A stretch of 64,000 nt of DNA from assembly GCA_001029675.1 (NCBI GenBank), contig CP011210.1, forward strand, positions 581,663 through 645,662. Reading direction: 5' to 3'. A model generated the notes under the pieces. It searched no databases and was not told the DNA's origin. It saw only the letters and a list, made by a program, of their open reading frames with translations. Of the stretch, positions 8,855 to 51,412 are shown one piece after another. The DNA comes from Candidatus Beckwithbacteria bacterium GW2011_GWC1_49_16. GTDB lineage: Bacteria; Patescibacteriota; Microgenomatia; UBA1400; CG1-02-47-37. Position 1 is the first letter of the stretch. Each line of letters begins with the position of its first letter. Position numbers and translations under genes: made by a program.

Positions 8855-9803
8855 AACGGTCCTGGTGACCGGTAACGCCGGCTTTATCGGCTCGCATTTA
8901 ACCGAGAAGTTGCTGGCGGATAACTACCGGGTAATCGGGGTAGACAACTTTAACGACTTTTACGACCCCAAGGTCAAGGAAAAAAATGTCGCTGCGGCGA
9001 AAAAAAATCCCCGCTTCAAACAGTACCGGACAGACATTACCGACTTTGGCGCTTTAGAGCGGATTTTTGAGGAAAGCGAGATTGACTTGGTCGTCCATCT
9101 GGCGGCGCGGGCGGGAGTCAGGCCGTCTTTGGTTTATCCCCGGCTGTATCAAAAAGTCAACGTCGAAGGAACGGTTAATTTGTTAGAGCTGACCCGCAAG
9201 TTTGAGGTCGGCAGGTTTATCTTTGGTTCGTCCTCCAGCGTCTACGGCGAGCAAAAAAAAGTCCCCTTTTCCGAGACCGACCCGGTCAACCGACCGGTCA
9301 GCCCCTACGCGGCCAGTAAAAAATCAGCCGAGATGTTTTGTTTTGCCTACTCAAAGCTGTTTGGCATCAAGACCACGGTGTTGCGGTTTTTTACCGTTTA
9401 TGGCCCCCGGGGGCGGCCGGACATGGCGCCGTATATTTTTGCCAAGGCGATTCTGAAAGGGGAGCCGATCACCCGCTATGGCAAAGGCGACACCAGCCGC
9501 GACTATACTTATGTCGACGATGTTGTGACCGGAATTTTGGCGGCGGTTAAAAAGCCCTTTGATTATGAAGTGATCAACCTGGGCCACAACCGGCCGGTGA
9601 AGTTAAACCAGTTTATTGCTACCATCGAGAAAATAGCCGGCAAAAAAGCCAAAATCTTTGAGCAGCCGCGCCACCCGGCAGACGTCAGCCAAACCTTTGC
9701 CGATATTGGTAAGGCCAAAAAACTGCTCGCCTGGCAGCCAAAAACCGATCTAGAAACAGGTCTAAGACGCTTCCTCAACTGGTACTCTAACTCACAACCA
9801 TAA
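8835..9803 (+). CDS. UDP-glucuronate 4-epimerase family NAD-dependent epimerase
   Basis: VLVTGNAGFIGSHL...VIGVDNFNDFYDPKVKEKNV signature (DNFNDYYD..LK) of the Cap1J/GlaKP-type epimerases. The track ORF starts at 8808; an internal ATG at 8835 is the more likely start. Confidence 0.6.
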   Translation: MKRSRPKTVLVTGNAGFIGSHLTEKLLADNYRVIGVDNFNDFYDPKVKEKNVAAAKKNPRFKQYRTDITDFGALERIFEESEIDLVVHLAARAGVRPSLVYPRLYQKVNVEGTVNLLELTRKFEVGRFIFGSSSSVYGEQKKVPFSETDPVNRPVSPYAASKKSAEMFCFAYSKLFGIKTTVLRFFTVYGPRGRPDMAPYIFAKAILKGEPITRYGKGDTSRDYTYVDDVVTGILAAVKKPFDYEVINLGHNRPVKLNQFIATIEKIAGKKAKIFEQPRHPADVSQTFADIGKAKKLLAWQPKTDLETGLRRFLNWYSNSQP

Positions 9804-9812
9804 CATCTAGAT

Positions 9813-9824
9813 TGACGATCGTCA
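9813..9824. other. perfect 12-bp palindrome TGACGATCGTCA in the 30-bp spacer between convergent genes
   Basis: Flanked by the short inverted repeat CATAACA/TGTTATG. Possible bidirectional terminator or protein-binding site. Confidence 0.3.
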
Positions 9825-9833
9825 CTCAAATTG

Positions 9834-10526
9834 TTATGTTGATAAAGCTTCCGGCAACTCACCGGGCTTTAATTTCTCTCTTCTACCCCACCACTTAAAC
9901 TTTTTCAGCCTGTCTACCACCTTAGCCTGGTGGCGCCAACCGCTCCTTTTAAGGTGGGTTAAATGAAGATACCAGGTATCGACAAACTCCAAGCGTTCGG
10001 GTTGATCCTGAATCGACCGGCCATTTATGGTGTAGGCCTCATCAGGATAGGAGCCGATAACTTTAAGCCCGGGCAGATTCTTGATCGCCCTAATGTTTAA
10101 ATTTCCGCTCCAGGGACCGATGCGGTAGCGGCCAGATGATTCAGGTAAGTAGTGGTAGACGTCGCCGATGGCGTTTCTGGTGCGGTTGACTAAAGCCAGG
10201 GTGTTTATTGAAGCATTCTCCGCGGCTTTGATTAATTGAATTAGGTTTTTTTCGGGCCAAACCTCGTCGCCGTCTAAAAGCAAGATCCAAGGGGTTTTGG
10301 TAGCGGCTATTTGCTGGTTTCTTAATTTCACCAGTCCGTTTCTGCCTGCCGCACCTTTTTGACTGAAGTCAATCTTGTTTGAGTTGATCGACTTAATCTC
10401 CTTTACGGTAGCGTCGGTGGAGCCGGTATCCCAGACGAGGAAACGGTCAACGTGGTCGATGACCGATAAAAGAGAAGGCTTAATAAACCTCTGTTCGTTT
10501 TTAACGATGGTGTGACTGGTAATCAT
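9834..10526 (-). CDS. glycosyltransferase family 2 (small)
   Basis: TIVKNEQRFI...VWDTGSTDAT...LLLDGDEVW motifs. Confidence 0.6.
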   Translation of the reverse strand: MITSHTIVKNEQRFIKPSLLSVIDHVDRFLVWDTGSTDATVKEIKSINSNKIDFSQKGAAGRNGLVKLRNQQIAATKTPWILLLDGDEVWPEKNLIQLIKAAENASINTLALVNRTRNAIGDVYHYLPESSGRYRIGPWSGNLNIRAIKNLPGLKVIGSYPDEAYTINGRSIQDQPERLEFVDTWYLHLTHLKRSGWRHQAKVVDRLKKFKWWGRREKLKPGELPEALST

Positions 10527-12724: not shown

Positions 12725-13434
12725 TCTGGCCCAAACAATTATCGCTGGTCTTGCCGGCATACAACGAAGCGGGGCGCTTGCCGCGGGCCCTGACCATCTG
12801 CCACCAGTGGAGTAAAAAATTTTCCGGCTGGGAGTTTATTTTTGTCAACGACGGTTCAAGCGACGCCGGCGAAAGCCTAATTCTCGCTAGTAAGTTTAAA
12901 CTCATATCTTACCCAACCAACCGGGGGAAGGGTTATGCGGTCAAAACCGGAGTAGCGGCAGCCACTAAACCGTTGGTGCTGGTCGCCGACATAGATTTTT
13001 CTACTCCCCTGTCTGAAATTCCCAAGTTTTATCAGGTTATCAGAACTGGCGCTGACGTCGCCTCGGGTTCGAGAAAGCTGGCTGGCGCCAAACTTTTAAA
13101 GCTTCAGCCAAAGATGCGTCAGTGGCTGGGCGAGCAGTTTACCCATCTGACTAACCTCTGGCTTGGCATGCGAGTGAGTGACTTTACCTGCGGTTTTAAA
13201 CTCTTTCTCGCCCCGGCAGCCAAAAAGTTATTCGGTTTGTCGCGGATCTCCCGCTGGGGCTATGACGCCGAGATTTTGTTTTTGGCCAAAGTCCTCGGCT
13301 ACCAACTGGTCGAGGTGCCGGTTACCTGGGAAAACGACGAAAGGACCCGGGTAAATATCTTACTGGACGTGCTGCGATCGCTGGGCGATTTAATCGCTAT
13401 CCGCTGGAACCAGCTAAGGGGAAAATACGCTTAG
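12703..13434 (+). CDS. polyprenol-phosphate glycosyltransferase (GT2, DPM1/ArnC-like)
   Basis: LSLVLPAYNEAGRL...IFVNDGSSD...VADIDFSTP. Shares an A8 tract with the upstream gene in a 22-nt overlap. Confidence 0.7.
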   Translation: MPYQKKVIWPKQLSLVLPAYNEAGRLPRALTICHQWSKKFSGWEFIFVNDGSSDAGESLILASKFKLISYPTNRGKGYAVKTGVAAATKPLVLVADIDFSTPLSEIPKFYQVIRTGADVASGSRKLAGAKLLKLQPKMRQWLGEQFTHLTNLWLGMRVSDFTCGFKLFLAPAAKKLFGLSRISRWGYDAEILFLAKVLGYQLVEVPVTWENDERTRVNILLDVLRSLGDLIAIRWNQLRGKYA

Positions 13435-15089
13435 GGCTGACTGGCGATGGCGCTGTAGAGGTCGGTGACGGGCGCGCCGGTAACGGCGTTTTCAGCTTTT
13501 ATAGATAAAGAAGACACCGGGGCGGGGACGGGAACGGTGTAGGCAAAAGTGGTCGGCAGCAAGTCAAAATCGGCGCTAAAGTCGGCCATGATGGTGTCCT
13601 GGCCGACGGCGGCGGTGATGTCTTGAGCAGGTGCGTCGACAAAGTTTAATTTAAACATGGTAAAAGAAACCGGGACGACGGCGTCGGGAATGATCTCGAT
13701 GGTGACGGAGCCAGGGCGGTTGACCACGCTGATTGCCACTTGGGCAAACTCGAGTTGCTGTTTGATCAAGCTCAAGTTGTTATCAATGGTATCCCGAAAC
13801 TGCCTAAGCAGGCGCTTTTTCTCTCTGATCGAAGCTTCATCGACAGTGTCGTAGATAAACACGTCGGCGTAAGCAGCATAAATCTGGTCAAAGTCGGCTT
13901 CGATCTGACTATAATCGTTGGCCAGCTGGTTTAAATAGCCGTACTTCAACTTTCTAAACTCCGGCAGGCGTTCCAAGAGTAAAAACAGCCGGGGGTAATC
14001 GTACTGGTCGGCCAAATGGGGGTCATAGAGGTTATACGACTTTAGAGTAGTACCACCGGAGAGGGTTAATTTGGTCAAGTCGCCTTCATTTCTGACCAGG
14101 GGATAAAACTTTTGGTCAGACGAAGAGTAGTAAAACCTAAGATTGTCGCCGGCGACGTCGTGGTCAATACCCAACACTTCCCGGTAAGCCTCAAAGCGAG
14201 CCAAGTAGTCAAGATCGATTACGTCAACAAGGGTTTTGAGGTCGCGATCACGCATAGCCTTGAAGAATTTGTCCGTTTGGTAGAGGGCTTGTGGGTCGTC
14301 TGTCGCCAAAGGTTCAACGTTGGCTATGGCAAAATCCCAGCCGGAAAGGTGGTGGGCATTGAGAGCTACCTCGTTGCCCCGGTGCTTTAATCTGGTGGCG
14401 TCTTTTAAAGCGATGATGTAGCCGGCAAGATTGCGGCTTTTTAAAAACTGGTCGTCTACTTTTTCTTCAAACATATAGATGCCGTTGGCTTTGCCGTTGA
14501 TCTTGACCCTGACCGGCTCTTGGCGGTTGTGGATTAACTCCAGCCGGTCGGCCAAGCTGTTGGCCAGAAGCGGAGTAATCCAGTCGTGGAGCCAAGAATT
14601 CAATAAATTAAATTTGGATAAGTTATCGACCGCCTGGTTGTCTTTTAGCTTCACGTCGTAATCGGTCTTGTTGTAGATAAAGTTGTTGGCTCCCCCGCCG
14701 TGAAAGCTAATCGTAGCTTTATAAGTTTGGCTAGCGAATCTGAAAGAAATTTCTTGGGTAGCCTCGGTTTCCGAATCATGAACACCAACCTCAAGAGATT
14801 TTTTAACGTCGGCGGCGATGTTTTTGATGTCGGTGGCCGACATAGTCAGGTTAAACTCGGGCAGGTCTTTGACGGTAAAGGCGTGAAGGTAGGTTTTAGG
14901 GTAAAAGGCGTCGATAATATTGTTGACGCCGGCGATAAACTTAAACTGGGCCTGAAGCAGAGGCGGTTTGTAGGGTTCGGGCAGAAAACCGGCCAGCTTA
15001 AAGGCAAGCCGATAAGCGGCAAAAAGGAAAACTAAGACGCCGACTAAGCCTGCGGTAAACTTAAGGGCTGGAGAAATTTTTATTTTCAC
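13431..15089 (-). CDS. CotH family protein (Fam20-like atypical kinase fold), N-terminal TM anchor
   Basis: 552 aa. N-terminal hydrophobic helix. KINGKANGIYMFEEKVDDQFLK matches the CotH N-lobe (NG..GVY..E...F). GTG start. Confidence 0.55.
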   Translation of the reverse strand: MKIKISPALKFTAGLVGVLVFLFAAYRLAFKLAGFLPEPYKPPLLQAQFKFIAGVNNIIDAFYPKTYLHAFTVKDLPEFNLTMSATDIKNIAADVKKSLEVGVHDSETEATQEISFRFASQTYKATISFHGGGANNFIYNKTDYDVKLKDNQAVDNLSKFNLLNSWLHDWITPLLANSLADRLELIHNRQEPVRVKINGKANGIYMFEEKVDDQFLKSRNLAGYIIALKDATRLKHRGNEVALNAHHLSGWDFAIANVEPLATDDPQALYQTDKFFKAMRDRDLKTLVDVIDLDYLARFEAYREVLGIDHDVAGDNLRFYYSSSDQKFYPLVRNEGDLTKLTLSGGTTLKSYNLYDPHLADQYDYPRLFLLLERLPEFRKLKYGYLNQLANDYSQIEADFDQIYAAYADVFIYDTVDEASIREKKRLLRQFRDTIDNNLSLIKQQLEFAQVAISVVNRPGSVTIEIIPDAVVPVSFTMFKLNFVDAPAQDITAAVGQDTIMADFSADFDLLPTTFAYTVPVPAPVSSLSIKAENAVTGAPVTDLYSAIASQP

Positions 15090-15094
15090 AAGTC

Positions 15095-15150
15095 GAGCTT
15101 ATAGGTTTTAGTGGAGTTGTCAAGCAGGTAGGCGGTCATGGCATCGAAAC
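15095..15150. repeat. direct repeat copy A (about 56 bp, roughly 52/56 identical to 16317-16372); a remnant 3' end of the GT-C gene
   Basis: agcttataggttttagtggagttgtcaagCaggtaggcggtcatggc... Encodes a remnant peptide ...AMTAYLLDNSTKTYKLDL*. Confidence 0.7.
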
Positions 15151-15205
15151 TTTCTTGGGCTAGTACCATAAATCTATTTTAAACTAAAATACTCAAACAA
15201 TTAAT

Positions 15206-15727
15206 TTATTTTCTATCTAAACCTGATTGAATTTTATCTATGGTCGCCTCAATTGTCATTTCAACTAAAAGATCTCTTCCTTTCAGGCTTCTGAGAAACA
15301 AAACTTTGCCATCTTGACTTACCTTTTCAAGAAATCCAATCAGGGTAAATTCAAAGGGTGGCAAATATAAATTAGGATGAGTTAACGCGACCTCGGAAAT
15401 AGTTTGAAGAGTAACTTTACCTTTATTGGCGCTTTCTTTCTTTGCCTTAGGGTTGCCGAGACTTATACCGGCTGTTTTAAGAGTATCTATTACTTGACCG
15501 TGAAAAAAGTTATCATTCTCCGGCGAAGGAACGCCCCAGTAAGTAACCAGCATATCAACGTCGGAGTCTGGACCGTCTGTATTCCTCGCCACACTGCCAA
15601 ACAGAACAACCCTTTTAACCTGTTCTACTTGACGCTTGAGAATCTTACCCACGTCGTTAGCTGCCTTGATTCTGTCTTTATGAGATAGGTACAGCTTTTC
15701 TAGCGAAGGTCTTTCAGACATAATCAA
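15206..15727 (-). CDS. nucleotidyltransferase (Pol-beta / MNT fold) domain protein
   Basis: VLFGSVARNTDGPDSDVDMLV is the G[SG]x9-13DxD minimal nucleotidyltransferase motif. The roughly 70-aa C-terminal extension is unassigned. Confidence 0.7.
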   Translation of the reverse strand: MIMSERPSLEKLYLSHKDRIKAANDVGKILKRQVEQVKRVVLFGSVARNTDGPDSDVDMLVTYWGVPSPENDNFFHGQVIDTLKTAGISLGNPKAKKESANKGKVTLQTISEVALTHPNLYLPPFEFTLIGFLEKVSQDGKVLFLRSLKGRDLLVEMTIEATIDKIQSGLDRK

Positions 15728-15742
15728 ATGTGGTTAGTTATT

Positions 15743-16258
15743 CTAACGAATGTCTTCTGGAAGAGAAAAACGAGAAAGGGCCCTTCGCGCAGTAATTGTC
15801 TGATCAATCTGCTCCTGAGTAAAACCGGGAAGGTCATATTTTTGTTTTAAATGAGAAACAATTAAATCTAACATCGAATTGATTTTTTCAATCTCATTTG
15901 GAGTGGTCATGAACTCACTTTTAGAACCAGATCTATTAGCCTGCCAATCAAACTGACAAAACTCGTCTATGGTTACTGCCATTCCCGTGTCGGTAATAAT
16001 TTCATCCTCCACGCTATGTTTTAAACGGTTCATTAAACCTGTGAGGAAATGCGTTCTACATTTCATTAACGGGTATTCTGAATTAAATCCGTCTACTAGT
16101 TGATCTGGAAGGGCGTCGGAGTAACCTCGATAAACCTGAAAGCTATGGAGATAAAACTCGGGTAAAGTTCCATTAACGATAGCTTCATAATAAGTCGCGT
16201 CTAGAGGCCTATTTGGTAAGACCAGCATCTGGGCGGCAGCTTCTTTAATAATTTTCAT
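15743..16258 (-). CDS. hypothetical protein, partner of the MNT gene (15-bp spacer)
   Basis: 171 aa with no recognisable motif and no Rx4-6H HEPN motif. TATAAT about 10 nt upstream. Confidence 0.4.
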   Translation of the reverse strand: MKIIKEAAAQMLVLPNRPLDATYYEAIVNGTLPEFYLHSFQVYRGYSDALPDQLVDGFNSEYPLMKCRTHFLTGLMNRLKHSVEDEIITDTGMAVTIDEFCQFDWQANRSGSKSEFMTTPNEIEKINSMLDLIVSHLKQKYDLPGFTQEQIDQTITARRALSRFSLPEDIR

Positions 16259-16306
16259 AAACCTAGAGTATTATAGGGTATAGAGTCAAATGGGGACAAG
16301 CGCGGT

Positions 16307-17815
16307 TTAGAATGAAAGCTTATAGGTTTTAGTGGAGTTGTCAAGAAGGTAGGCGGTCATGGCGCCAAACTGCTGGCGGGCGATGACCGGCAAGTCGGAG
16401 GTCAAGGGTTTGTCGGTAAGCAGAAGTATTCGCTCGGGCATTTCTGGTACAGGCGGCCGGGCGTAGAGCCAGAAGAAGTTGGAGTCCATGAAGGAAATAA
16501 CCGGCGGATTATCGGTCAGTTCAAACAGGTAGCGCAGGCCGTTTTCGCGGTGGCATTTGCTGACAGAGTCCAGGGCAAAGGGTTGGCCGGATAACTCACT
16601 TTGGGCCCAGGAGACCAGTTGGTTTTTGTAACTTAAACCGTAAGGGTGATGGGCGCGGCTGACCTGAAAAAGGTTTAAAGCGACGATGATAGCGGTTAAG
16701 GTATAAGTAAGGGAACGGGGCAGTTTGGTTAAAACCCAAGCGGTGATCAAGGCAAAAACAGGCAGCAGGCCGGCAAGGTAGTGGTCGAACAAAGAAAAAC
16801 CCAAAACACCAAAGAGAACGACGCCGACAAAATAGGTTAAAAGCAAAACCACTATGGCTTTGACGGCCGGTTTTCGGCTGGTGAATTTTTTGACGATAAA
16901 CCAAACCAGCAAGGCCGCGGCCGAAACGACCAAGAGCCAAGACAGCTGGCGCTGGCGACCTTGGGCAAAAGGAAAACAGTAGGAATAAAGCTCGGCCAGA
17001 CTGGTTTGGGGAGAATACCAGAAACGGGCAAAACTCCGCGGCAAAAGCAACAAGCCGTCGATGATTCTTTCAACCGCAAAACCCTTGGCAGAAAGATTGG
17101 TAAACAAACGGGACACGCCTCTCAAGTTTTCCCAGCCGTGGCGAAGATCAAACGCCAATAAAGGGGCGACAAATAAACCTAAGGACACCAACAACGAACC
17201 TTTGACTGCCCGGCGGTTGAAGCGGCGGCGGAAAATAAAGTAGGTTAACAAAATTGCGGCCAGGAGCATCAGGTTAGAGGGATCGGCGCTGACGGCAAAA
17301 ACCAACACCAACCCTAACCAAAAGTATGGCCAAAAAGGTCCGACCTTTTTGAATTTGAGCTTGGTCAATAAAAGCAGCGCCAGGGTAGTCAGCAAGGGAT
17401 TAAAAACCAAAGGCCAAAAGTGGCGGTCGAAAAAGACGGCGGTAAAAGAAGTGGCATAAAGTAAAACCGCGATTAAAGCAAATTCTTGGGTAAAAAGTTT
17501 TTTAGCCAAAGAAAAAAGGCTTAGTAAAGTAGCCAAGCCGATGGCGGCGGCGACTACTCCCCAAGCGATGGGGTTAAAACGGGACAAGGGCAAAAATAGG
17601 GCGGAGAGGTAATAAAAATAGGGCGGCAGGTGGACTTGTAAGGGGCTGATGCCGCCGATAAGAAAGGGCCTGCCCAAAACAAATAAGCCCCAGCCGCGAA
17701 AAGCCAGCAAAGCCTCATCCATGGTGAAGTGGAAAAGCGGAGTTAGTTTAAACAGGCGCAGGAACAAGCCTAAAGCAATCGCGGCGGAAAGCCAAAGCTG
17801 GGGTTTTAATCTCAT
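16307..17815 (-). CDS. ArnT/PMT-like GT-C membrane glycosyltransferase
   Basis: 502 aa, polytopic. HFTMDEALLAFRGW DE motif. Confidence 0.65.
   Translation of the reverse strand: MRLKPQLWLSAAIALGLFLRLFKLTPLFHFTMDEALLAFRGWGLFVLGRPFLIGGISPLQVHLPPYFYYLSALFLPLSRFNPIAWGVVAAAIGLATLLSLFSLAKKLFTQEFALIAVLLYATSFTAVFFDRHFWPLVFNPLLTTLALLLLTKLKFKKVGPFWPYFWLGLVLVFAVSADPSNLMLLAAILLTYFIFRRRFNRRAVKGSLLVSLGLFVAPLLAFDLRHGWENLRGVSRLFTNLSAKGFAVERIIDGLLLLPRSFARFWYSPQTSLAELYSYCFPFAQGRQRQLSWLLVVSAAALLVWFIVKKFTSRKPAVKAIVVLLLTYFVGVVLFGVLGFSLFDHYLAGLLPVFALITAWVLTKLPRSLTYTLTAIIVALNLFQVSRAHHPYGLSYKNQLVSWAQSELSGQPFALDSVSKCHRENGLRYLFELTDNPPVISFMDSNFFWLYARPPVPEMPERILLLTDKPLTSDLPVIARQQFGAMTAYLLDNSTKTYKLSF
16317..16372. repeat. 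direct repeat copy B (the intact 3' end of the GT-C gene 16307..17815)
   Basis: agcttataggttttagtggagttgtcaagAaggtaggcggtcatggcgcc... In frame with ...AMTAYLLDNSTKTYKLSF*. Confidence 0.7.
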
Positions 17816-18354
17816 TGAAGCTTCTTTTTAACTTGGGCCGGGACGCCGGCGACCATGACGCTGGCGGGGACAGATTTTCTGACCACGGCTCCGGCAGCAA
17901 CCAGAGAATTTTTCCCGATGGTCACGCCCGGCAAAATGACGCTGGCGACGCCAATAGCGCAACCGGATTCCAGGGTGGTGGTATAAACCTTTTTGGGGTA
18001 ATGCTTTAAAAGCGGGTGGTCGGAAAAGCCGACCGAGTGGTGCGACAAGATGACGCTGGCGGCAGAAACGGTCACTTGGTCACCTAAAACCACTTTGCCG
18101 GCCAAGTCGATGGTAGTCCTCGGCCCCAGATAACAGTCTCTGCCGAGAGTCAAGCCGGCCAGGCCGGTGCGGTCGAGGTTAAAGAACCCGGCCTTATCCA
18201 CGACACAGTTTTTACCGATTTTAGCCCCGCCCAGCCTTAACCACCACACCCTTAGAGGCGAATAAGGCAAGGCCCCAAATACCAGATCCCAGGCTCCAAA
18301 CACTAAATACTTGAAAATTCTTTTCAGACCGATTTCTTTAATGATTTTTGCCAT
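17812..18354 (-). CDS. hexapeptide-repeat (LbH) O-acetyltransferase, WcaF-like
   Basis: Left-handed beta-helix hexapeptide repeats (IGKNCVV, LGDQVTV, IGKNSLVAAGAVV). Confidence 0.75.
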   Translation of the reverse strand: MAKIIKEIGLKRIFKYLVFGAWDLVFGALPYSPLRVWWLRLGGAKIGKNCVVDKAGFFNLDRTGLAGLTLGRDCYLGPRTTIDLAGKVVLGDQVTVSAASVILSHHSVGFSDHPLLKHYPKKVYTTTLESGCAIGVASVILPGVTIGKNSLVAAGAVVRKSVPASVMVAGVPAQVKKKLQ

Positions 18355-19079: not shown

Positions 19080-20180
19080 ATGATGAGGCTACTACTAATC
19101 ACTTATGAGCTGCCGCCCTTGGGCGGGGGCACGGCCGTGGCTTGCCAAAACTTGCTTCAAGAATTTGCCAAAGAAAAAAACTTGAAAATCGATGTGGTCA
19201 CCGCCTCGCCTGACCAGGATAAAAAAGAAACCTTAGCTAAAAACATTATCGTTCACCGCTTAAGCGTCGGCAAAAGGGGCAGAAACCTGCACCACCAATC
19301 AGGTCTTAACCTGTTAAGGTTTTTGATCCGCTCCTATCTTTGGGCTTGGCCCCACCGCCGAAACTACGACCTGGTTCATGCCTTCGGCGGGTTGCCGGCG
19401 GGGCTAACCGCCTGGGCTTTGGGCCGACAGTATCTTATCTCCCTTCGGGGAGGGGAAGAACCGGGTTATGAAACCCGCTACGATTTTTGGCTTAAGTTAG
19501 CCAAACCCTTTTTGAGCCTGGTTTACCGCCGGGCCAAGTCTTTGGACGCCAACAGCCGCTATTTAAAGCGTTTGGTCTTAAAATCGTTTCCCGGCTTGCC
19601 AATTAAGGTGATCAGAAACGGAGTGGACCAAAGCCGCTTTTATCCGGCAAAAAAGCTACCAACTAAACCGGTGATTTTGTCTACTTCTCGTTTGGGACAA
19701 AGAAAAGGGGTCGAAGACTTGATCGCGGCCATGCCGAAGGTTTTGGCGGCGGTTCCCGATGCCAGGCTGGTCTTGATTGGGGGCGGCCAGCTTGAAGGCA
19801 AAATCAGACAGCTGGTTAAAAAGCTCAAGTTGACAAGGGCGGTTAAGTCTTTCGGTCCAGTGGAACATAAAAACCTGCCGTCACTTTACCGCCGGGCGAA
19901 AATTTTCGTTCTCCCCTCTTTGACAGAGAGCCAGTCAAACTCTCTGCTTGAGGCGCAGGCCAGCGGCCTGCCGGTGGTAGTAACCCGCGTCGGCGGCAAC
20001 CCGGAGACGGTGAACCAAGACAACGGCATTTTGGTGCCGGTCGGTGACTCGAAAGCCCTGGCTGAAGCAATCGTTAAGGCTTTAAATCGACCGCGGCTGA
20101 ATCTTTTGCTCCAAAATAAATATTCATGGGAGAAAACGGCGAATGAATATTTAAAGATATATAATAAAGTTTACCAATGA
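19080..20180 (+). CDS. glycosyltransferase family 4
   Basis: MMRLLLITYELPPLGGG... N-terminus and C-terminal SQSNSLLEAQASGLPVV motif. The track ORF starts at 18975, but ATG 19080 avoids overlap with the divergent gene. Confidence 0.7.
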   Translation: MMRLLLITYELPPLGGGTAVACQNLLQEFAKEKNLKIDVVTASPDQDKKETLAKNIIVHRLSVGKRGRNLHHQSGLNLLRFLIRSYLWAWPHRRNYDLVHAFGGLPAGLTAWALGRQYLISLRGGEEPGYETRYDFWLKLAKPFLSLVYRRAKSLDANSRYLKRLVLKSFPGLPIKVIRNGVDQSRFYPAKKLPTKPVILSTSRLGQRKGVEDLIAAMPKVLAAVPDARLVLIGGGQLEGKIRQLVKKLKLTRAVKSFGPVEHKNLPSLYRRAKIFVLPSLTESQSNSLLEAQASGLPVVVTRVGGNPETVNQDNGILVPVGDSKALAEAIVKALNRPRLNLLLQNKYSWEKTANEYLKIYNKVYQ

Positions 20181-21031
20181 AAACAAAGAAAGTTCTGGTT
20201 ACCGGCGGGGCAGGATTCATCGGCAGTCATACTGTTGACGAATTAAAACGCCTGGGCATTGCCGTTACCATTTTCGAAAGCGACCAGGATGTTAAAAACG
20301 AGATAGTTGTAAAAAAAGCCGTAAAAGGTCATGGTGGTGTAATCCATCTGGCGGCCACTTTGGGCACGCAGGAAACAGTGACCAACCCGAAACCGGTGGT
20401 TAAAAATAATATTCTCGGATCATTGAATATTTTTGAAGCAATCAGGGAAACTAACATTCCGGCCGTCTATATTTCCGTCGGCAACCACTGGATGAACAAC
20501 CCATACTCAATTACCAAATCCACGGCCGAACGCTTTGCTTTAATGTTCAATAAAGAATTTGGGACTAAAATTGCCGTTGTTCGCGGACTCAACGCTTACG
20601 GGCCTAAACAAAAAGACAAACCGGTTCGGAAAATGATTCCTAACTTTATCATCCCAGCCTTAAAAAATGAACCGATCACCATCTACGGAGACGGTCAGCA
20701 AATTATGGATCTAATTTACGTTAAAGACTTAGCTAAAATTTTAGTCCGGGCTTTAATCAAAAACCATGGCGTTTATGATCGGGTATTTGAAGCCGGTATG
20801 GGGCAAAAAATTACCGTTAATCAAATCGTCAAGCTGGTGATCAAATTAACTAAATCAAAATCAAAAATCAGCTATGCCCCGATGCGCCCCGGGGAAATCC
20901 CCAACTCCATAGTCATGGCTAATAAAAAAGTTTGGAATTTGGAAAAATTGGGCTGGCACTCGACCGACTTTACCCCACTAATTAAAGGGCTTAAACAAAC
21001 CATTCGGTATTATGAAGGTTTGTTTCATTAG
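20177..21031 (+). CDS. NAD-dependent epimerase/dehydratase (extended SDR), short form
   Basis: VLVTGGAGFIGSH Rossmann motif and YSITK (YxxxK). Confidence 0.6.
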   Translation: MKTKKVLVTGGAGFIGSHTVDELKRLGIAVTIFESDQDVKNEIVVKKAVKGHGGVIHLAATLGTQETVTNPKPVVKNNILGSLNIFEAIRETNIPAVYISVGNHWMNNPYSITKSTAERFALMFNKEFGTKIAVVRGLNAYGPKQKDKPVRKMIPNFIIPALKNEPITIYGDGQQIMDLIYVKDLAKILVRALIKNHGVYDRVFEAGMGQKITVNQIVKLVIKLTKSKSKISYAPMRPGEIPNSIVMANKKVWNLEKLGWHSTDFTPLIKGLKQTIRYYEGLFH

Positions 21032-22199
21032 TCATTACGCTTATCGGCTCTTTAACGAAAACAGTCAGATTACTTTCGGGGGCAACGAAGTTTTGTACTT
21101 CTTAATTGCCAAGAAATTGGCCCAAGATAGACGGTTCGGCGTCAGCTTTTTACTGGAAACTGATCGCTCCAAAACCGAAACTATCTCTAAGATCAAGTTA
21201 TTTAAAACTTCTCGACAGCAAGGGTTAATCAAAGGCAACAACAAAACACTGGATTTTTTAACAAAGTTATTTGCCAGAATCGCCGAACGGTTTAACACTC
21301 TTTGGAATTTACCGCATCAAGATTTTTTCCGTCTTGGCGAAAGATTGAAAACTATCAACGCCGACGTTTATATTCAGGGCAGCGCCACTTATGAAATCGG
21401 CCTGGTGGTTTTTTGGTCAAAACTATTTAGAAAAAAGTGCATCTTTTTAATCGGCCATGACGATGATGTCAACCAAACCTATGTTAAAAATCACCGTTGG
21501 GGTAAGATTTACGAATGGGGCTTAAAACACGCCGATTTGATTTGGTGTACCTCTGTTAGACACCAACAACTGCTTTGGAAAAATTATCGACTCAGGGCCA
21601 CTTACATCCCCTACTGGTTTCCGGTACCGAAAAAAATATTGCCGCAAAATAAGCGGCGGCAAATTCTTTGGATTGCCCGGCTCGACCCCTGGAAAAATCC
21701 GGAAGCGTTCTTAAAATTAGCCAAAAGCCTGCCGGGGCAAAAATTTATCATGATTGCCTCTACATCAGAAGGTCACCAGGATTACTTTAAGAAAATTTCT
21801 AACCAGGCCAAAAAGATTCCTAGGCTTTCATTGAAAACGAATGTGCCGTTTTCCCGGATAAGCAAATATTATCAACAAGCAAAATTATTTATTGATACTT
21901 CGGATTACGGCAGTTTGCATACTTCTCACTTAATGGCGGCTGTGGCCGGTACCCCGGCAATTACTCTATTTAGGGATCCTAATGATAGTTTTAAAGAATA
22001 CGGTTGGGGGTTAAACGCTAAGGGCAGCTTTAAAAAATTCAGACAACAAGTTGAGTTAGCTTTAAACCAACCAGGTCTTTGGCAAGAATTATCCCAAAAA
22101 GCCATCATCTTCTCGAAAAAAGTCCACAATCTTGATAAGTTAGTTCACCAATTTAAAACAATGCTTTTAAATTTGTCAACTACCTCGGATAAATCGTGA
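21012..22199 (+). CDS. GT-B glycosyltransferase, paralog 1 of 3
   Basis: MKVCFISHYAYRLFNENSQITFGGNEV N-terminus shared with the genes at 22145 and 25739. Confidence 0.5.
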   Translation: MKVCFISHYAYRLFNENSQITFGGNEVLYFLIAKKLAQDRRFGVSFLLETDRSKTETISKIKLFKTSRQQGLIKGNNKTLDFLTKLFARIAERFNTLWNLPHQDFFRLGERLKTINADVYIQGSATYEIGLVVFWSKLFRKKCIFLIGHDDDVNQTYVKNHRWGKIYEWGLKHADLIWCTSVRHQQLLWKNYRLRATYIPYWFPVPKKILPQNKRRQILWIARLDPWKNPEAFLKLAKSLPGQKFIMIASTSEGHQDYFKKISNQAKKIPRLSLKTNVPFSRISKYYQQAKLFIDTSDYGSLHTSHLMAAVAGTPAITLFRDPNDSFKEYGWGLNAKGSFKKFRQQVELALNQPGLWQELSQKAIIFSKKVHNLDKLVHQFKTMLLNLSTTSDKS

Positions 22200-23242
22200 T
22201 GACCAACCGCATATTGATAAGCCCGATCAGATAATCTTCGCCAGAACTTTTGATTGCGGAGAACTTTTTTTAAATACTCTGTCAACATCTTTTCATCGCC
22301 CTTGGCGCAAAAACCCAATTTATTTTGGGAAATGATTTTATCTGGATCGACTTGATAAGAAACGATCGGCGTCATGTTTTTGGCTGCCTGGATAAAAGTA
22401 TTGGGAAAACCTTCACTAAAGGAGGTTGAAACGAAAACTCTCGATTTTCTAAAGAATGCATCTATCTTGTTAAACGGCACCCAAGCGATAAATTGAAGAT
22501 TGCTGATTTGTTTTGCTTTGGCCTTAATGATTTTAAAATAATCTGGGTTATTTTCCGCCGGCGGGCAAATCATGGTGAATTTTTCGCGGGGGAATTTAGC
22601 TGCCAAAGCCAGCAACAGTTCCGGATTTTTCCAAGTTTCTGCCCTGGCCACCCAAAGAATGCCTTGTTTATTGATGTTTTGCTGGCGCAACCGTGGTTTT
22701 ATGGGATAAGCCAGAGGAACAATCACGCTTTTCCCCCTTAGGTTTTTTGACAGTTGTCTTTGTTGGTCTCTTGTTTGACAAACTATTCTGTCCGCCAAAA
22801 TTAAGCCAAAACCAAAGAGTTTCCCCCGCCAGCCGTTTTTCTTCATAAAATCACCGTTGACGTCCTGAATATGGGCCACCATAAAAATAAACTTTTTTCT
22901 TAACAGCCAACAGATTAGCGCGATGAGTCCGGTTTCGGCGCTGGCAGCTCGTTGGATAAAAATGTCAGCATTAATCTGCCTCAACTGAGCCAAAAACTGG
23001 ACAAAAAACCCCAAGTAGCCAAACGCTTGGGGAGACCGAAACATTTGAAAAACTTTAATTTGATCAAAAACTTCTTGCTGATTGTTTTTTTGATTGTCGG
23101 TAAGGAAAAAAATCTTAAAGTTTTTGTTTTTGGCCAATTCTTTGGCCAGAAGATACAGTTGTATCTGGGCGCCGCCGAAAACAATGTTAGATTTGGGATT
23201 AAAAAGAGGGTAAGCAAACCAGTCAATAAAACAAATTTTCAT
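22145..23242 (-). CDS. GT-B glycosyltransferase, paralog 2 of 3
   Basis: MKICFIDWFAYPLFNPKSNIVFGGAQIQ...SEGFPNTFIQAA. Confidence 0.5.
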   Translation of the reverse strand: MKICFIDWFAYPLFNPKSNIVFGGAQIQLYLLAKELAKNKNFKIFFLTDNQKNNQQEVFDQIKVFQMFRSPQAFGYLGFFVQFLAQLRQINADIFIQRAASAETGLIALICWLLRKKFIFMVAHIQDVNGDFMKKNGWRGKLFGFGLILADRIVCQTRDQQRQLSKNLRGKSVIVPLAYPIKPRLRQQNINKQGILWVARAETWKNPELLLALAAKFPREKFTMICPPAENNPDYFKIIKAKAKQISNLQFIAWVPFNKIDAFFRKSRVFVSTSFSEGFPNTFIQAAKNMTPIVSYQVDPDKIISQNKLGFCAKGDEKMLTEYLKKVLRNQKFWRRLSDRAYQYAVGHHDLSEVVDKFKSIVLNW

Positions 23243-24027
23243 TTTTTGATCCTGACGATCATGGAGTAACCGATCGGAAAGGCCGACAGGGCATAATCCC
23301 AGTATTCGGCAATGAAACCCTTTTTATCTCTATATAATCGGCTTAGTTGTCCTACGGCTAAACTTAAAAGGTTGTTAACAATGTAAATTGGATAGATAAT
23401 TTTAAGCGTTCCGAATAAAATCCGGACTACGATATTGCTGAAAATAAATAGCGAGGCAAACAAATTGTTGCTGCCCCGAAGCAAAATAATCTTATCCCGT
23501 TTAAACAGGGACTGAAGTTTGTATTTAGTAAAACGATTAAAGTCGTGGGGAATGCCGTGCAAGGGGAAAATAAACGGAATGGATAAATAGACCAAAGCTT
23601 GATTTTTAGCCACCCGTTTTAACTCGCTGACCACTTGGTATTCATTATCACAATGCTCCAAGACTTCCGAAAGTATAATTACGTCAAAAACATTATCTTT
23701 AAAGGGTAATTGTTCGTTGTTGGCAATGACGTCGGCATAAGAATTTAGATCCAAGTCTACACCAATATATTGATCGTTGGGGAAAAATGCTTGATATGGC
23801 TTGTAGCCACAGCCAAGGTCTAAAATCTTTAGAGGGCTGGCTTTTTTACCAACCAACTCTAACATTCGTTCAAATGTTTCTCTAAAACTTAAGGTCATGA
23901 TATAGGTGTAATCGTAGAGTCTGGGCTTGAGCCGCTCTCTGATAATTGAAGGGTTTTTGGGCAATTTTCCCCGGCCGCGCCTTACCCGATAGTTTTTGTT
24001 TTTTAAAAGCGTTTCAATTTTTGCCAT
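23239..24027 (-). CDS. class I SAM-dependent methyltransferase
   Basis: ILDLGCGYKPY motif I; DVIILSEVLEH. Confidence 0.65.
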   Translation of the reverse strand: MAKIETLLKNKNYRVRRGRGKLPKNPSIIRERLKPRLYDYTYIMTLSFRETFERMLELVGKKASPLKILDLGCGYKPYQAFFPNDQYIGVDLDLNSYADVIANNEQLPFKDNVFDVIILSEVLEHCDNEYQVVSELKRVAKNQALVYLSIPFIFPLHGIPHDFNRFTKYKLQSLFKRDKIILLRGSNNLFASLFIFSNIVVRILFGTLKIIYPIYIVNNLLSLAVGQLSRLYRDKKGFIAEYWDYALSAFPIGYSMIVRIKK

Positions 24028-25721
24028 AGTCGATCAATTATATAACCGATAGTTAATCCAATAAACGGCAAAGACTGGGTCATCGAACGGTACTCGACTA
24101 AATTCTTGGCCGTGAGGAAAAAATGGGGAATTTCCAAAAAGAAAACTAAAACCGGAATGTACCGTAATGCCTTTCTCCTTAACATTAACCAGGCGCCGGC
24201 AATAAATAAAACCAAGCCCGTTAGATTATCTTTAAAATAAAGGCCGCCAAAGGTTTTTCTTACACCTGCCAAAGTGGAAATAATTAAATCAGGAAGAGTG
24301 TGAAGTTTAAAAAAATAAGTAAAGGCAGAAATTTCTGGCCCCTGAAACGGATTCATCCGCTCTTCTTCTTTGGTAGGGAATCCCGGTTGCCCAGAGAATT
24401 CAACATTCACATTCCATTTTAAATGATTTGCCTCGGAATAGTTCCAGGTATTGTAAGTTTTAAGATTGGTAATAATAATCGGAGCGGCAATTAAAAATGT
24501 TGTTAACATTATCACCATTCCTGATTTTAATTTTTTTCTGGCAATCATAAATATCAATGCCAGGCCGATTAGCTGGACGATTGAATGAAGCCGCAAATAA
24601 ATGGCAAAAATTATGGCTAAAACTAAAATAACCTTATTCCGATTTTTTTTGAGGTTAGACTCAAACAGCCAGAAAGAAAAAATTAAGATAACAAACGTAA
24701 ACGCCGGATCTCTCAGCCCTCGCGTTGACAAATCGATAAGATAAGGGTGGACGGCAATAAATACCGCGGCTGCGGCGGCGCCGACAACTGAACCGATCTT
24801 TTTGCCATAGGTATAAGTTAACCCAATCGTCAACCAATGAAACACCAGGCTCGATAGCTTTATCGCCATCTCCGAACCATAACCAAACAGTTGCCAAAAA
24901 GTAAGAATAATTAACACGTTTAGACTTTCTTTATTTAGGCAATAATTTCCCGCCAAGGCTGTTGTCAAGTCCTGAGAAAGAAACTTTTCTGTCTGGCTAG
25001 TCAAACAATTGATATCGCTGTCAAAAGCCCGGTAGCGATTTTCAAACAAGCTTTTCCAGGATAAATGCATCCCTAAAAATATCACGGCAAAGACTATCAA
25101 AAACTCAATAGCAATCTTTTTTTTGGGCCGGATAATGAATAGTATCGGGAAAAAAGTAAACAATCCCAGTAAAATCAATGGCGGCATTTTGATTTCTCGC
25201 TGGTAATGCATTAAGTGGAAATCATAAAGGATTACTGCCGGCAAACCGTTAACCTCTTTGTTAGTCGCCTCAATCTTAATCCAAAAGTGCTCGCTATTGG
25301 CAATATATTGATTCAAATCTAAAGGCGGAGCAAAATGTTGAAACCGATTATTTTCAACCAACATTTCCCAGTCCTGTTGATTGGTAGAAATGCTGACTTT
25401 ATTGCTACCGGGGTCAGGATGTGTCAATGAAAGTTGTAATACCGCCACTTGGGCACCGGGTGGTCGAGTAAACTCATACACGACCAGTCCCTGAGTTTGC
25501 GGGTCTAACGATAAATCAATCTTGTCTTCCTCAGACCAACCAGAATATTCAACGGCTTCTGTTCGCAGTTTGTCAAAGTTTCTCCAGCGTCTGCCCATCT
25601 TTACTTCTCCAACTAAGTTCTTCCCCTGCATCGAATTAAATGAATCTTCCAGCCTTGAACGGAAAATAAAAAAATTGAGAAGTAAGACTAAACTGATTAA
25701 AATAACTTTGACTACTTTCAT
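24003..25721 (-). CDS. polytopic membrane protein with a roughly 170-aa N-terminal extracytoplasmic domain (possible Wzy-like polymerase or GT-C); function unknown
   Basis: 572 aa. Signal-anchor, then about 10 TM helices. Confidence 0.35.
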   Translation of the reverse strand: MKVVKVILISLVLLLNFFIFRSRLEDSFNSMQGKNLVGEVKMGRRWRNFDKLRTEAVEYSGWSEEDKIDLSLDPQTQGLVVYEFTRPPGAQVAVLQLSLTHPDPGSNKVSISTNQQDWEMLVENNRFQHFAPPLDLNQYIANSEHFWIKIEATNKEVNGLPAVILYDFHLMHYQREIKMPPLILLGLFTFFPILFIIRPKKKIAIEFLIVFAVIFLGMHLSWKSLFENRYRAFDSDINCLTSQTEKFLSQDLTTALAGNYCLNKESLNVLIILTFWQLFGYGSEMAIKLSSLVFHWLTIGLTYTYGKKIGSVVGAAAAAVFIAVHPYLIDLSTRGLRDPAFTFVILIFSFWLFESNLKKNRNKVILVLAIIFAIYLRLHSIVQLIGLALIFMIARKKLKSGMVIMLTTFLIAAPIIITNLKTYNTWNYSEANHLKWNVNVEFSGQPGFPTKEEERMNPFQGPEISAFTYFFKLHTLPDLIISTLAGVRKTFGGLYFKDNLTGLVLFIAGAWLMLRRKALRYIPVLVFFLEIPHFFLTAKNLVEYRSMTQSLPFIGLTIGYIIDRLWQKLKRF

Positions 25722-25738
25722 CGATTATAATTATAGAC
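25722..25738. promoter_or_regulatory. 17-bp divergent intergenic region with a palindromic TATAAT-type box (ATTATAATTATA)
   Basis: The entire spacer between a minus-strand ATG and a plus-strand GTG is cgattataattatagac. Confidence 0.35.
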
Positions 25739-26743
25739 GTGAAACCAATCAAAGTCTGCTTTATTTCCCTAAAAAGCTATCCGCTTTTTGTTAAAAACTC
25801 TCTCGATTATTTCGGCGGCGCCGAAGTACAAATGAGTTTAATCGCCCGGGAACTAGCCAAAGACAAACGTTTTGGAGTCAGCTTAATCACCGGTGATTAC
25901 TCCCAACCGCCGATAATCAAACAAGGCCGCGTAACCTTACTCAAGACTAAGTTGATTGATTTTTTAACAGTCCTAAAAACCGTTGACGCCGATGTTTACG
26001 TCGAAAGAACCATCAATCCCAAAGTGTTACTGGTCGGCTGGTGGTGTCGTTTGTTTAAAAAGAAATTCGCCTACATGGTTGCCCACGACTGGGATTGCGC
26101 TTACTTCCGACTGAAGCTGGCAAATTTAATTATCGCCCAACACCAACTGCAAAGTTTTGCCCTGAAACAAAATTTAAAGCTCAAGAGTCTGGTGATGCCT
26201 TCGCTGATAAAAATGAAGACTGAAGAGAAAACGCTCAGGCGTCAATATATTTTGTGGGTGGGCCGGGCAGACAAGTGGAAAAATCCGCTCAAGTTTCTTG
26301 ACCTTGCCAGGCACTATTCTCAAGAAAAATTTGTCATGATTTGCCGTCAGGGCAAGAATAAGGCCTTATTCAATCTGGTTAAAAATCAGGCGAAATCACT
26401 CACCAATTTAAGCTTTGTCCCGGCCGTGTCAGCGGAAAAAATTTCAACCTTTTTCCTTCAGGCCAAAATTTTAGTTAACACCTCAACCGCCGAAGGTTTT
26501 CCCAACACTTTTCTCCAGGCCGGGGCCGCCAGAACTCCTGTTTTGTCCTTTAAGGTGAATCCTGATAGTTATATAATTAGATACCAATGCGGCTTGATTG
26601 GGGACAAACGGCTAAAAGAAATTTTAAATAATCCTGCTGGGTTAAAAACTATGGGCAGAAATCATTATGATTATGTTAAAAAATATCATGGTCTAAAAAA
26701 TATTGACATCCTTAAACAGGGATTGTTGAATTTAATTCAATGA
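25739..26743 (+). CDS. GT-B glycosyltransferase, paralog 3 of 3
   Basis: GTG start. MKPIKVCFISLKSYPLFVKNSLDYFGGAEVQ...AEGFPNTFLQAGAARTPVL. Confidence 0.5.
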   Translation: MKPIKVCFISLKSYPLFVKNSLDYFGGAEVQMSLIARELAKDKRFGVSLITGDYSQPPIIKQGRVTLLKTKLIDFLTVLKTVDADVYVERTINPKVLLVGWWCRLFKKKFAYMVAHDWDCAYFRLKLANLIIAQHQLQSFALKQNLKLKSLVMPSLIKMKTEEKTLRRQYILWVGRADKWKNPLKFLDLARHYSQEKFVMICRQGKNKALFNLVKNQAKSLTNLSFVPAVSAEKISTFFLQAKILVNTSTAEGFPNTFLQAGAARTPVLSFKVNPDSYIIRYQCGLIGDKRLKEILNNPAGLKTMGRNHYDYVKKYHGLKNIDILKQGLLNLIQ

Positions 26744-41073: not shown

Positions 41074-41759
41074 TACTTGGACAGAGATTGGCGGGGCAGG
41101 TCGAAAGTTTTAACCACCCCGGTCAAATAGTCTGGGACGCGGCCGGAAAACTTTAACTCCATGATAGCGTGGTCGGGAATGACTTGAGTCAGGCGAGGGG
41201 TGGCAAAAAGGTCGTGGCTTAATACCGCTTGGATTTGGTAATCAAAGGTGAGGCGGAAATTAGGATAAAAAGGGTCGATTAAAGGCTGGCGCAAGTAAGA
41301 AACCAGGATGGCCGGTTGGAGACGGTAAGCGACCAACTGGTGGTAAAACCGGTCTAAAGTACCGCTTTCGGTTTGGGGATTTGAACTAGACAGGCTGTCT
41401 TGGGAGCTTAAAAGTTTTTGGGTTTTGTCCCAGCGCAGCTGGGCGCGTTCTTTGGTTAAGAAGTCACCATACTTATATTTGATTTCCCAAAAAACCGGCG
41501 TTGAGGCGGTGGCCTTTTGAGAGTAGGTCCTTAAGCGATACTTGACCCTGTCTTTGACGCCGTATTGCTTTTGCCAGTAGGCTTGGTAGTCGGGAGTGTC
41601 CAGGTATAAAGTAGAGATGTAGTAGCTGGCGTCAGGTTTTTTTTGCGAGTGGCTGTCGGGAACCAGACCGCGGTTTAAAAGAAACTCCCTTACCTGGCGG
41701 TGCTGGTCCGGGGTTAATAGATACTTGTATTCCTGGCGCTCAAAGTTGGTTTTGATCAT
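41025..41759 (-). CDS. VTC-domain (CYTH-like triphosphate-tunnel) protein
   Basis: ERQEYKYLL (E.K motif), LYLDTPDYQAY and KDRVKYRLRTY match the VTC/polyphosphate-polymerase-domain pattern. Confidence 0.6.
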   Translation of the reverse strand: MIKTNFERQEYKYLLTPDQHRQVREFLLNRGLVPDSHSQKKPDASYYISTLYLDTPDYQAYWQKQYGVKDRVKYRLRTYSQKATASTPVFWEIKYKYGDFLTKERAQLRWDKTQKLLSSQDSLSSSNPQTESGTLDRFYHQLVAYRLQPAILVSYLRQPLIDPFYPNFRLTFDYQIQAVLSHDLFATPRLTQVIPDHAIMELKFSGRVPDYLTGVVKTFDLPRQSLSKYCLSLEACGIVAEEND

Positions 41760-51391: not shown

Positions 51392-51412
51392 GTTTGATTA
51401 AGTGATACAATA

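Follow-up and report, generated by a model that had tools for sequence, protein, structure and literature searches.

The 64,000-nucleotide (nt) stretch of the Candidatus Beckwithbacteria bacterium GW2011_GWC1_49_16 genome analysed here (contig CP011210.1; hereafter referred to as the window) contains a segment of foreign DNA that has been inserted at the 3' end of a GT-C glycosyltransferase gene and is bounded on both sides by a copy of that gene end. The insert carries two genes, one encoding a minimal nucleotidyltransferase (MNT) and the other a 171-aa protein of an uncharacterised family, and we consider that it probably entered as a foreign circle, through a single crossover at the GT-C 3' end, and that it is immobile now. 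All genes of the locus lie on the minus strand, where they succeed one another, in gene orientation, as GT-C, a 48-nt spacer, the 171-aa open reading frame (ORF), a 15-21-nt gap, MNT, a 36-nt spacer, a 27-codon ORF, and a gene of the CotH family (Table 1).

The edges of the insert are marked by a direct repeat of 47 nt, whose two copies (A on the CotH side, B on the GT-C side) are identical at 46/47 positions with a spacing of 1221. No other direct repeat in the window reaches both 28 nt in length and an identity above 90%, and none of 100 shuffles of the window matched it. Copy B is in frame and makes up the 3' end of the GT-C gene (...AMTAYLLDNSTKTYKLSF), and copy A sits in the 27-codon ORF (MVLAQESFDAMTAYLLDNSTKTYKLDL), the lone mismatch between them (C/A at 15125/16346) being synonymous in a Leu codon. 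Beyond the 47 nt, in-frame similarity persists, but only 12 of the 27 nt upstream (gene orientation) are identical, and the step from 46/47 to 12/27 at the inner edge of the repeat is abrupt (Fisher P = 1.2e-7). An initial annotation of this DNA, made from the sequence alone, had described a direct repeat of approximately 56 bp (52/56 identical) that duplicates the 3' end of the GT-C gene; exact alignment of both copies confirmed that the repeat is real and that it duplicates the gene end, while the figure of 52/56 turned out to mix the 47-nt core with the diverged zone. Duplication in situ followed by drift was rejected as its origin, the uniform decay that this entails being incompatible with 46/47 beside 12/27 in adjacent non-functional DNA.

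Outside the core, the two copies are continued differently. Copy B is followed by the two terminal codons SF*, copy A by DL*, and it is DL* that is linked to CotH. On the other side, the head of the 27-codon ORF (MVLAQESF) scored 9.7 bits on a position-specific scoring matrix built from 96 homologue tails, a level reached by only 1.3e-4 of the 8-mers in the six-frame translation of the window; on this sequence measure, we take the diverged head to be a genuine GT-C tail. Its GC content is 0.41, that is AT-rich and resembling the insert rather than the host.

Relatives lacking the insert, in which the initial annotation had looked for an empty site with a single repeat copy, could be found in the form of diverged orthologues (51-54% amino acid identity). 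Two loci from species-representative genomes, L017 and L019, keep synteny without the two genes. The order in L017 is GT2, hexapeptide acyltransferase, GT-C, CotH, GT2 (minus strand), methyltransferase (minus strand), and a second GT-C gene, which L019 matches as far as CotH and the minus-strand GT2. In both, a single GT-C 3' end overlaps the CotH start; in L019, the sequence ATGA contains both the start codon of CotH (ATG) and the stop codon of GT-C (TGA), and in L017 the CotH ATG lies 17 nt inside the GT-C end. In the window, it is the TGA stop of the 27-codon ORF (15086-15088) that overlaps the GTG start of CotH (15087-15089). Synteny without the two genes, taken together with the shared stop/start overlap, shows that the cassette is a lineage-specific insertion; likewise, recurrence of the same overlap in L017, in L019, and between the 27-codon ORF and CotH identifies the latter junction as the ancestral GT-C/CotH junction, and the DNA between the repeat copies as the novelty.

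Looking further afield, the nearest GT-C relatives beyond the organism's own population are 58% identical. The hexapeptide gene upstream of GT-C is kept in every relative examined, as is GT2 wherever the contig is long enough; the gene downstream of GT-C varies among these relatives, and none of them has the two genes. CotH itself is variably present at that position, a convergent GT2 gene directly following GT-C in L009, L018, and L023; the GT-C 3' junction is a recurrent point of gene-content change (L009, L018, and L023 versus L017, L019, and window 13431-15089). One could suppose that the cassette is ancestral and that relatives lost it through recombination between the flanking repeats, which would excise it precisely and leave a single GT-C end, as in L017 and L019. 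We find this hardly credible, given that the GC content at third codon positions (GC3) is deviant in both genes, that the cassette is absent from all loci of GT-C relatives examined, across several downstream architectures, and that no relatives of MNT were found by word search while the best homologue of its partner is only 43% identical. Moreover, the same 47-nt segment compared across lineages is 57-72% identical, against 98% between the two repeat copies, implying a recent event.

Within the population to which the genome belongs, the arrangement is constant. The annotation of Candidatus Beckwithbacteria bacterium GW2011_GWB1_47_15, a member of the candidate phyla radiation (CPR; Patescibacteria), includes the 171-aa protein together with its neighbours, and the exact proteins occur on dozens of groundwater contigs, in the order GT-C, 171-aa protein, MNT, CotH wherever it is shown. 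Six contigs recovered from different samples show no difference over the 4,385 nt that span GT-C to CotH (100% identity), and within the 90%-identity clusters of these two proteins there are only point variants, all GT-C variants ending in ...KLSF. The insert is fixed in an essentially clonal population.

The insert DNA is of foreign composition. Its GC content is 0.389 as compared with 0.467 for the whole window, and GC3 is 0.355 in both of its genes versus 0.55-0.64 in the 12 nearest genes; the interval had rightly been described as more AT-rich than its flanks. The AT-rich stretch that had been taken for a leader of the cassette lies, in fact, downstream of the MNT stop codon and upstream of the 27-codon ORF and CotH, and is no such leader. 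Similarly, the 15-bp gap reported between the two genes holds with the TTG start of MNT and becomes 21 nt with the ATG start, which is the one that public gene callers use. Promoter-like sites are not enriched relative to shuffled sequence (3 found, 2.7 expected), a scan found no terminator-like site in the insert, and no inverted repeats were found at its ends. Two familiar kinds of element were considered and set aside. An integron gene cassette does not fit, as there are no attC-like inverted repeats at the ends, two ORFs are present, the flanking direct repeats are coding sequence, and intI was not found; nor does an insertion sequence or transposon, as terminal inverted repeats and a transposase are not present and the duplication, 47 nt long, is part of a longer homologous segment.

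A single crossover is the simplest history that accounts for every feature of the present arrangement. In the ancestor, GT-C would have run straight into CotH, with their stop and start codons overlapping. The incoming DNA would have been a foreign circle of lower GC content, bearing the 171-aa gene, the MNT gene, and its own version of about 25 codons of a GT-C 3' end, and one Campbell-type reciprocal crossover with the chromosome would have taken place within the shared 47-bp stretch, the chromosomal partner being ...VIARQQFGAM-core-DL*/CotH and the circular partner ...VLAQESFD(AM)-core-SF*-spacer-171aa-MNT-spacer. Such an exchange would leave GT-C intact, with the insert-derived SF* now at its end in place of DL*; it would place the 1,174-bp insert next after GT-C; and it would create a hybrid remnant ORF composed of the insert-derived head MVLAQESFD, the 47-bp core, and the native DL* tail that overlaps the CotH start. 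An inner zone that is diverged and yet GT-C-like, together with the drop from 46/47 to 12/27, fits a single crossover with a circle bearing its own GT-C 3' end. The predicted empty site (attB-like) reads ...CAGCAGTTTGGC + GCCATGACCGCCTACCTKCTTGACAACTCCACTAAAACCTATAAGCT + CGACTTGTGAAAAT, and the predicted junction of the circle (attP-like) ...GAAAGTTTCGAT + core GCCATGACCGCCTACCTKCTTGACAACTCCACTAAAACCTATAAGCT + TTCATTCTAAACCGCGC. The catalyst may have been either RecA or a site-specific recombinase, the latter acting in trans or encoded on a part of the element since deleted. The remnant ORF, which has its own ATG, keeps the stop/start overlap and probably still provides CotH with translational coupling; CotH has a GTG start, and inspection by eye of the sequence upstream shows no obvious Shine-Dalgarno sequence.

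Several points weigh against this history. No near-identical empty site was found in the collections, in that the hits of exact-protein look-ups with CotH and the partner, the 90%-cluster members of GT-C and CotH, and the six contigs all carry the cassette, so that the pre-insertion sequence is inferred rather than observed. An integrase, a circular form, or a second cassette copy was not found anywhere searched. A classical attP arm would not usually include a GT-C-like segment upstream of the crossover, and such a segment is more in keeping with homologous recombination or with imprecise excision at an earlier stage; gene conversion between the two copies may also have sharpened the identity block at a later time. 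As to the cargo pair, the partner family is never beside an MNT in 20 other loci. The initial annotation had spoken of a site-specific insertion with attL/attR-like ends: an insertion at the GT-C 3' end with an att-like duplication stands, on the evidence of L017 and L019, the sharp edges, and the composition, while the crossover itself may have been either site-specific or homologous.

A more specific version of the single-crossover history names the enzyme. An island or prophage with a tyrosine or serine integrase would have integrated at an attB site in the GT-C 3' end, and a later internal deletion would have taken the integrase and most genes, leaving attL, the two cargo genes, and attR. 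Small accessory genes beside an att site are typical of such elements; the direct repeats are sharply bounded on both sides, and the DNA of the element rebuilds the 3' end of its target, as in elements targeting tRNA or gene 3' ends. On the other hand, no integrase remnant was found in the 1,174 bp or in the window, the same core or cargo was not found inserted elsewhere, and strict site-specific exchange would not call for the diverged GT-C tail that forms the arm upstream of the core. We hold this version to be possible, if tentative, its probability being a share of that given to the single crossover in general and not an addition to it.

Homology-facilitated illegitimate recombination, in which most of the resident GT-C gene would have given way to a linear donor that carried GT-C with the two genes downstream of it, appears unlikely. 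One end of the donor would have been anchored by homology upstream and the other joined illegitimately 27 codons before the resident stop, so that the remnant would be the old resident tail and the 47-nt identity the product of later gene conversion. That the head of the remnant is a true GT-C tail of another allele agrees with such a replacement, and a donor order of GT-C followed by the partner gene is plausible, as partner-family genes often adjoin GT-C elsewhere. However, the GT-C gene as it now stands is native in composition (GC3 0.596), the two genes being the only ones that deviate, the remnant head is AT-rich like the insert and unlike the host, and a conversion tract of exactly 47 nt directly beside 12/27 identity amounts to an extra ad hoc step.

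Table 1. Features of the insertion locus (window coordinates).
Feature	Position	Strand	Remarks
CotH-family gene, 552 aa	13431..15089	-	Predicted to have once been coupled directly to the GT-C stop
27-codon remnant ORF (MVLAQESFDAMTAYLLDNSTKTYKLDL*)	15086..15169	-	Codons 1-9 are a diverged GT-C tail; the 47-nt core comes next
Repeat copy A, 47 nt, 46/47 versus copy B	15096..15142	-	Within remnant ORF; CotH-side junction of insert
Inserted DNA between repeat copies, 1,174 bp, GC 0.389	15143..16316	-	Missing from syntenic loci L017 and L019
AT-rich spacer, GC 0.14	15170..15205	-	MNT stop to remnant ORF start
MNT-type minimal nucleotidyltransferase, 171 aa from ATG (173 aa from TTG 15727)	15206..15721	-	GSX10DXD at residues 42-56
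Promoter-like ATGACA-17-TAAAAT	15231..15259	-	Inside MNT 3' end, toward remnant ORF and CotH; consensus match only
171-aa all-helical protein (AlphaFold2 model), uncharacterised family	15743..16258	-	Motifs LPxYYL, YSDDLP, KCRGN, TTxEEIxxINxxLDxVI
Promoter-like TTGTCC-18-TATAAT	16270..16299	-	In 48-nt spacer upstream of 171-aa gene; consensus match only
Target gene, GT-C (PMT_2 / GT39-like) glycosyltransferase, 502 aa, intact	16307..17815	-	Final two codons (SF*) predicted to come from inserted DNA
Repeat copy B, 47 nt	16317..16363	-	Last 15.7 codons of intact GT-C gene (AMTAYLLDNSTKTYKL); GT-C-side junction of insert

The insert now appears immobile, with no sign of continuing movement. It contains no recombinase, its only genes being the two 171-aa ORFs, and no recombinase or transposase domain (Pfam) was found between ~7 and 62 kb of the window, in agreement with the earlier remark that no integrase is left in the cassette. 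A shared-word search of 5.8 billion protein sequences for a second copy of either gene returned only the query itself, and, for the partner only, a full HMMER search over 1.84 billion representatives gave none. The insert DNA had no blastn match in phages or plasmids, and neither the 47-nt core nor MNT matched anything in viral contigs. The cassette had been called mobile; current mobility finds no backing in these searches, in which no second copy turned up, nor in the population contigs examined, which are all identical. As an observation on related loci, the orthologous glycosylation cluster of L009 holds a gene for a Y1 (IS200/IS605-type) transposase (9421-10065); mobile elements do enter such clusters.

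Integrase-less insertion at a gene 3' end, flanked by direct repeats, is a known kind of event, of which the present locus is a further instance. The ssrA islands of Dehalococcoides are reportedly an example of islands at gene 3' ends with a duplicated gene end. Islands at the 3' ends of tRNA, tmRNA, or protein genes share with the window the duplication of the 3' end as a direct repeat, the deviant composition, and the existence of syntenic relatives without the insert, but they have an integrase beside the att site and are found repeatedly, in many strains, at one location, two features not seen in the window. A closer likeness is offered by the cis-mobilizable elements (CIMEs), which have lost their integration and transfer genes and retained attL and attR (PMC5704250). 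These too consist of foreign DNA in the 3' end of a gene, bounded by direct repeats of attL/attR type, one of which completes the target gene. In contrast to CIMEs, the element of the window has no known cognate integrase or parent integrative and conjugative or integrative and mobilizable element; it is a single occurrence of 1.2 kb in a CPR host, and the arm neighbouring its core is a diverged copy of the tail of the target gene. We regard the likeness to CIMEs as a resemblance and no more.

With regard to the cargo, the MNT product matches Pfam NTP_transf_2 (PF01909) with 37.5 bits (cut-off 21) and has an exact GSX10DXD motif (GSVARNTDGPDSDVD), which bears out the identity proposed for it in the initial annotation. 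This motif is the catalytic signature of MntA adenylyltransferases (PMC7641770). The score against the NCBIfam MntA equivalog (MntA_antitoxin) is 29.2 bits, below the cut-off of 60. Having the complete catalytic motif of the AMP-transferring MntA enzymes, the protein is probably active. Its best match among both solved structures and plasmids is the N-domain of the kanamycin nucleotidyltransferase ANT(4')-Ia (27-28% identity over residues 12-158; E ~1e-5 to 1e-4), the alignment being confined to the N-terminal nucleotidyltransferase domain. Assignment to the ANT(4') aminoglycoside nucleotidyltransferases themselves, which are two-domain proteins of ~253 aa, was rejected, MNT scoring 27.4-27.6 bits against NCBIfam cut-offs of 350 and 500. 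A word-index protein search found no relatives of MNT.

The 171-aa partner had been described as devoid of recognisable motifs, and indeed it had no match in Pfam, NCBIfam, or PADLOC and no relatives by word-index search. An exhaustive HMMER scan uncovered a family of 84 homologues, mostly of 140-175 aa, the best being 43% identical; the family as a whole has no match in Pfam, PHROGs, PADLOC, or PDB sequences. AlphaFold2, run with the family alignment, gave an all-helical model of the 171-aa protein (predicted local distance difference test 94; predicted template modelling score 0.89), for which Foldseek found nothing at E <1 in PDB and BFVD; going by this model, the family may possibly have a new fold. 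A 7,011-aa multi-domain protein contains the domain once (P0142, residues 974-1101), and proteins of 275-484 aa (P0106, P0108-P0111, and P0143) contain it two or three times in tandem; this suggests that the domain is modular and not that of a dedicated small toxin.

We examined 20 distinct loci with members of the partner family, some of which were located with a six-sequence sub-alignment. The commonest domain next to the homologues is PMT_2 (6 of 37 immediate neighbours). Six loci have an orthologous GT-C gene (520-590 aa; 53-86% identical among loci) in convergent orientation to the homologue, and in L011 and L028 the homologue precedes another PMT_2 gene; altogether, PMT_2/GT-C genes are adjoined in window 15743-16258, L011, L015, L028, L031-L033, L039, L040, and L042. 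This adjacency could mean that the family is functionally linked to GT-C enzymes, or it could be no more than synteny conserved inside a single clade. Elsewhere, partner homologues were not found to be flanked by duplicated GT-C ends, and the idea of a family homing to GT-C ends was therefore dropped as having no support beyond this locus. Two further features were seen at these loci, namely a small conserved ORF ending in ...SPIALERxRFEAEVKxQFxKLKDKGLSIPVFTL upstream of the partner genes (L011 3376-3576, L012 3600-3731, and L015 2223-2381), and short direct repeats upstream of the partner homologue (L032 3581-3763 and L039 1618-1935).

The two genes had been proposed to form a toxin-antitoxin-like or defence cassette. 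Read in this way, they would constitute a type VII (HEPN/MNT) module, serving either as a toxin-antitoxin pair or in anti-phage defence, and the 171-aa protein would be its divergent toxin. The resemblance to HepT/MntA type VII systems (PMC7641770, PMC11586414) is that, in both, horizontally acquired DNA bears a tight operon for a small MNT with an exact GSX10DXD motif and a helical partner of small size. The genes are small, equal in size, and set 15-21 nt apart, their identical GC3 indicates co-transfer, MNT has the exact motif and gives weak matches to MntA_antitoxin and to the PADLOC candidate PDC-S09, and the partner domain is found in the 7,011-aa multi-domain protein. Nonetheless, RX4HXY is present in 0 of 82 members of the partner family, the 171-aa protein itself lacks RX4-6H, no His column of the family is conserved above 42%, and there is no HEPN match, either by Pfam (none among 59 family members) or by fold; with neither RX4HXY nor a conserved histidine, the 171-aa protein is not a recognisable HEPN. 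In addition, the order of the two genes is the opposite of that in HepT/MntA (MNT upstream; PMC7641770), the window MNT is longer (171 aa) and matches MntA with 29 bits against a cut-off of 60, and neither PADLOC nor PHROGs matches the partner family. Finally, the pairing is not conserved in the genomes examined, the partner family standing without a nucleotidyltransferase neighbour at all 20 other loci (0/20), with PMT_2 its commonest neighbour. The module reading draws on three points only, namely that the genes are tightly spaced, that they were transferred together, and that MNT genes in general have such a reputation, and we regard it as doubtful.

Our best guess for the cargo, an addiction-like pair in which MNT would nucleotidylate the co-transferred 171-aa protein, is itself about as doubtful, or marginally less so. 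At least as likely are two unrelated cargo genes, the 171-aa protein working with GT-C glycosyltransferases, as is suggested by the neighbourhoods of its relatives. Very unlikely, in our opinion, is a new-fold effector or toxin family under an MntA-like nucleotidyltransferase (a HEPN-independent, type VII-like system) on an integrase-less cassette that homes to GT-C 3' ends in CPR bacteria by means of its own copy of that end; if true, the repeated GT-C adjacency of the family would mean targeting and not shared function.

Turning to the surroundings, other low-GC blocks occur elsewhere in the glycosylation island, at window 20177-28071 and ~50100-51500 (GC 0.39-0.42), the block at 20-28 kb having a GC3 of 0.41-0.47 and the GC minimum of the window (0.363) lying near 50.3 kb; by its appearance, the island is a mosaic of genes gained by horizontal transfer. 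The window contains three CotH-family paralogues (41756-43000, 48187-50391, and 13431-15089) among at least 5 PMT_2 genes, together with an ABC transporter and a nonulosonic-acid pathway of NeuB type, which makes an unusually large surface-glycan island for a genome of ~1 Mb. The hexapeptide acyltransferase upstream of GT-C is one 180-aa ORF in the window (17812-18354) and in GCA_003545475.1 (L002 2736-3278), and two ORFs of 50 + 93 aa in GCA_001001885.1 (L001 2858-3278); the adjacent GT4 gene is called as 366 aa in GCA_001001885.1 versus 399 aa in GCA_003545475.1. These length differences are either start-site or frameshift differences, or gene-calling artefacts.

Taken alone, the insertion would be unsurprising to specialists and opens no long-standing question; its cargo is an orphan nucleotidyltransferase and a member of an uncharacterised family. 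Mobile elements and recombination mechanisms are poorly documented in CPR bacteria (Patescibacteria), and the locus provides a clean, datable horizontal insertion within a CPR operon. It would also show how a translationally coupled gene pair survives an insertion, the end of one gene being replaced on one side while a mini-ORF keeps the overlap on the other. As a by-product, the analysis has brought to light a family of small, uncharacterised helical proteins that may merit structural or functional study.

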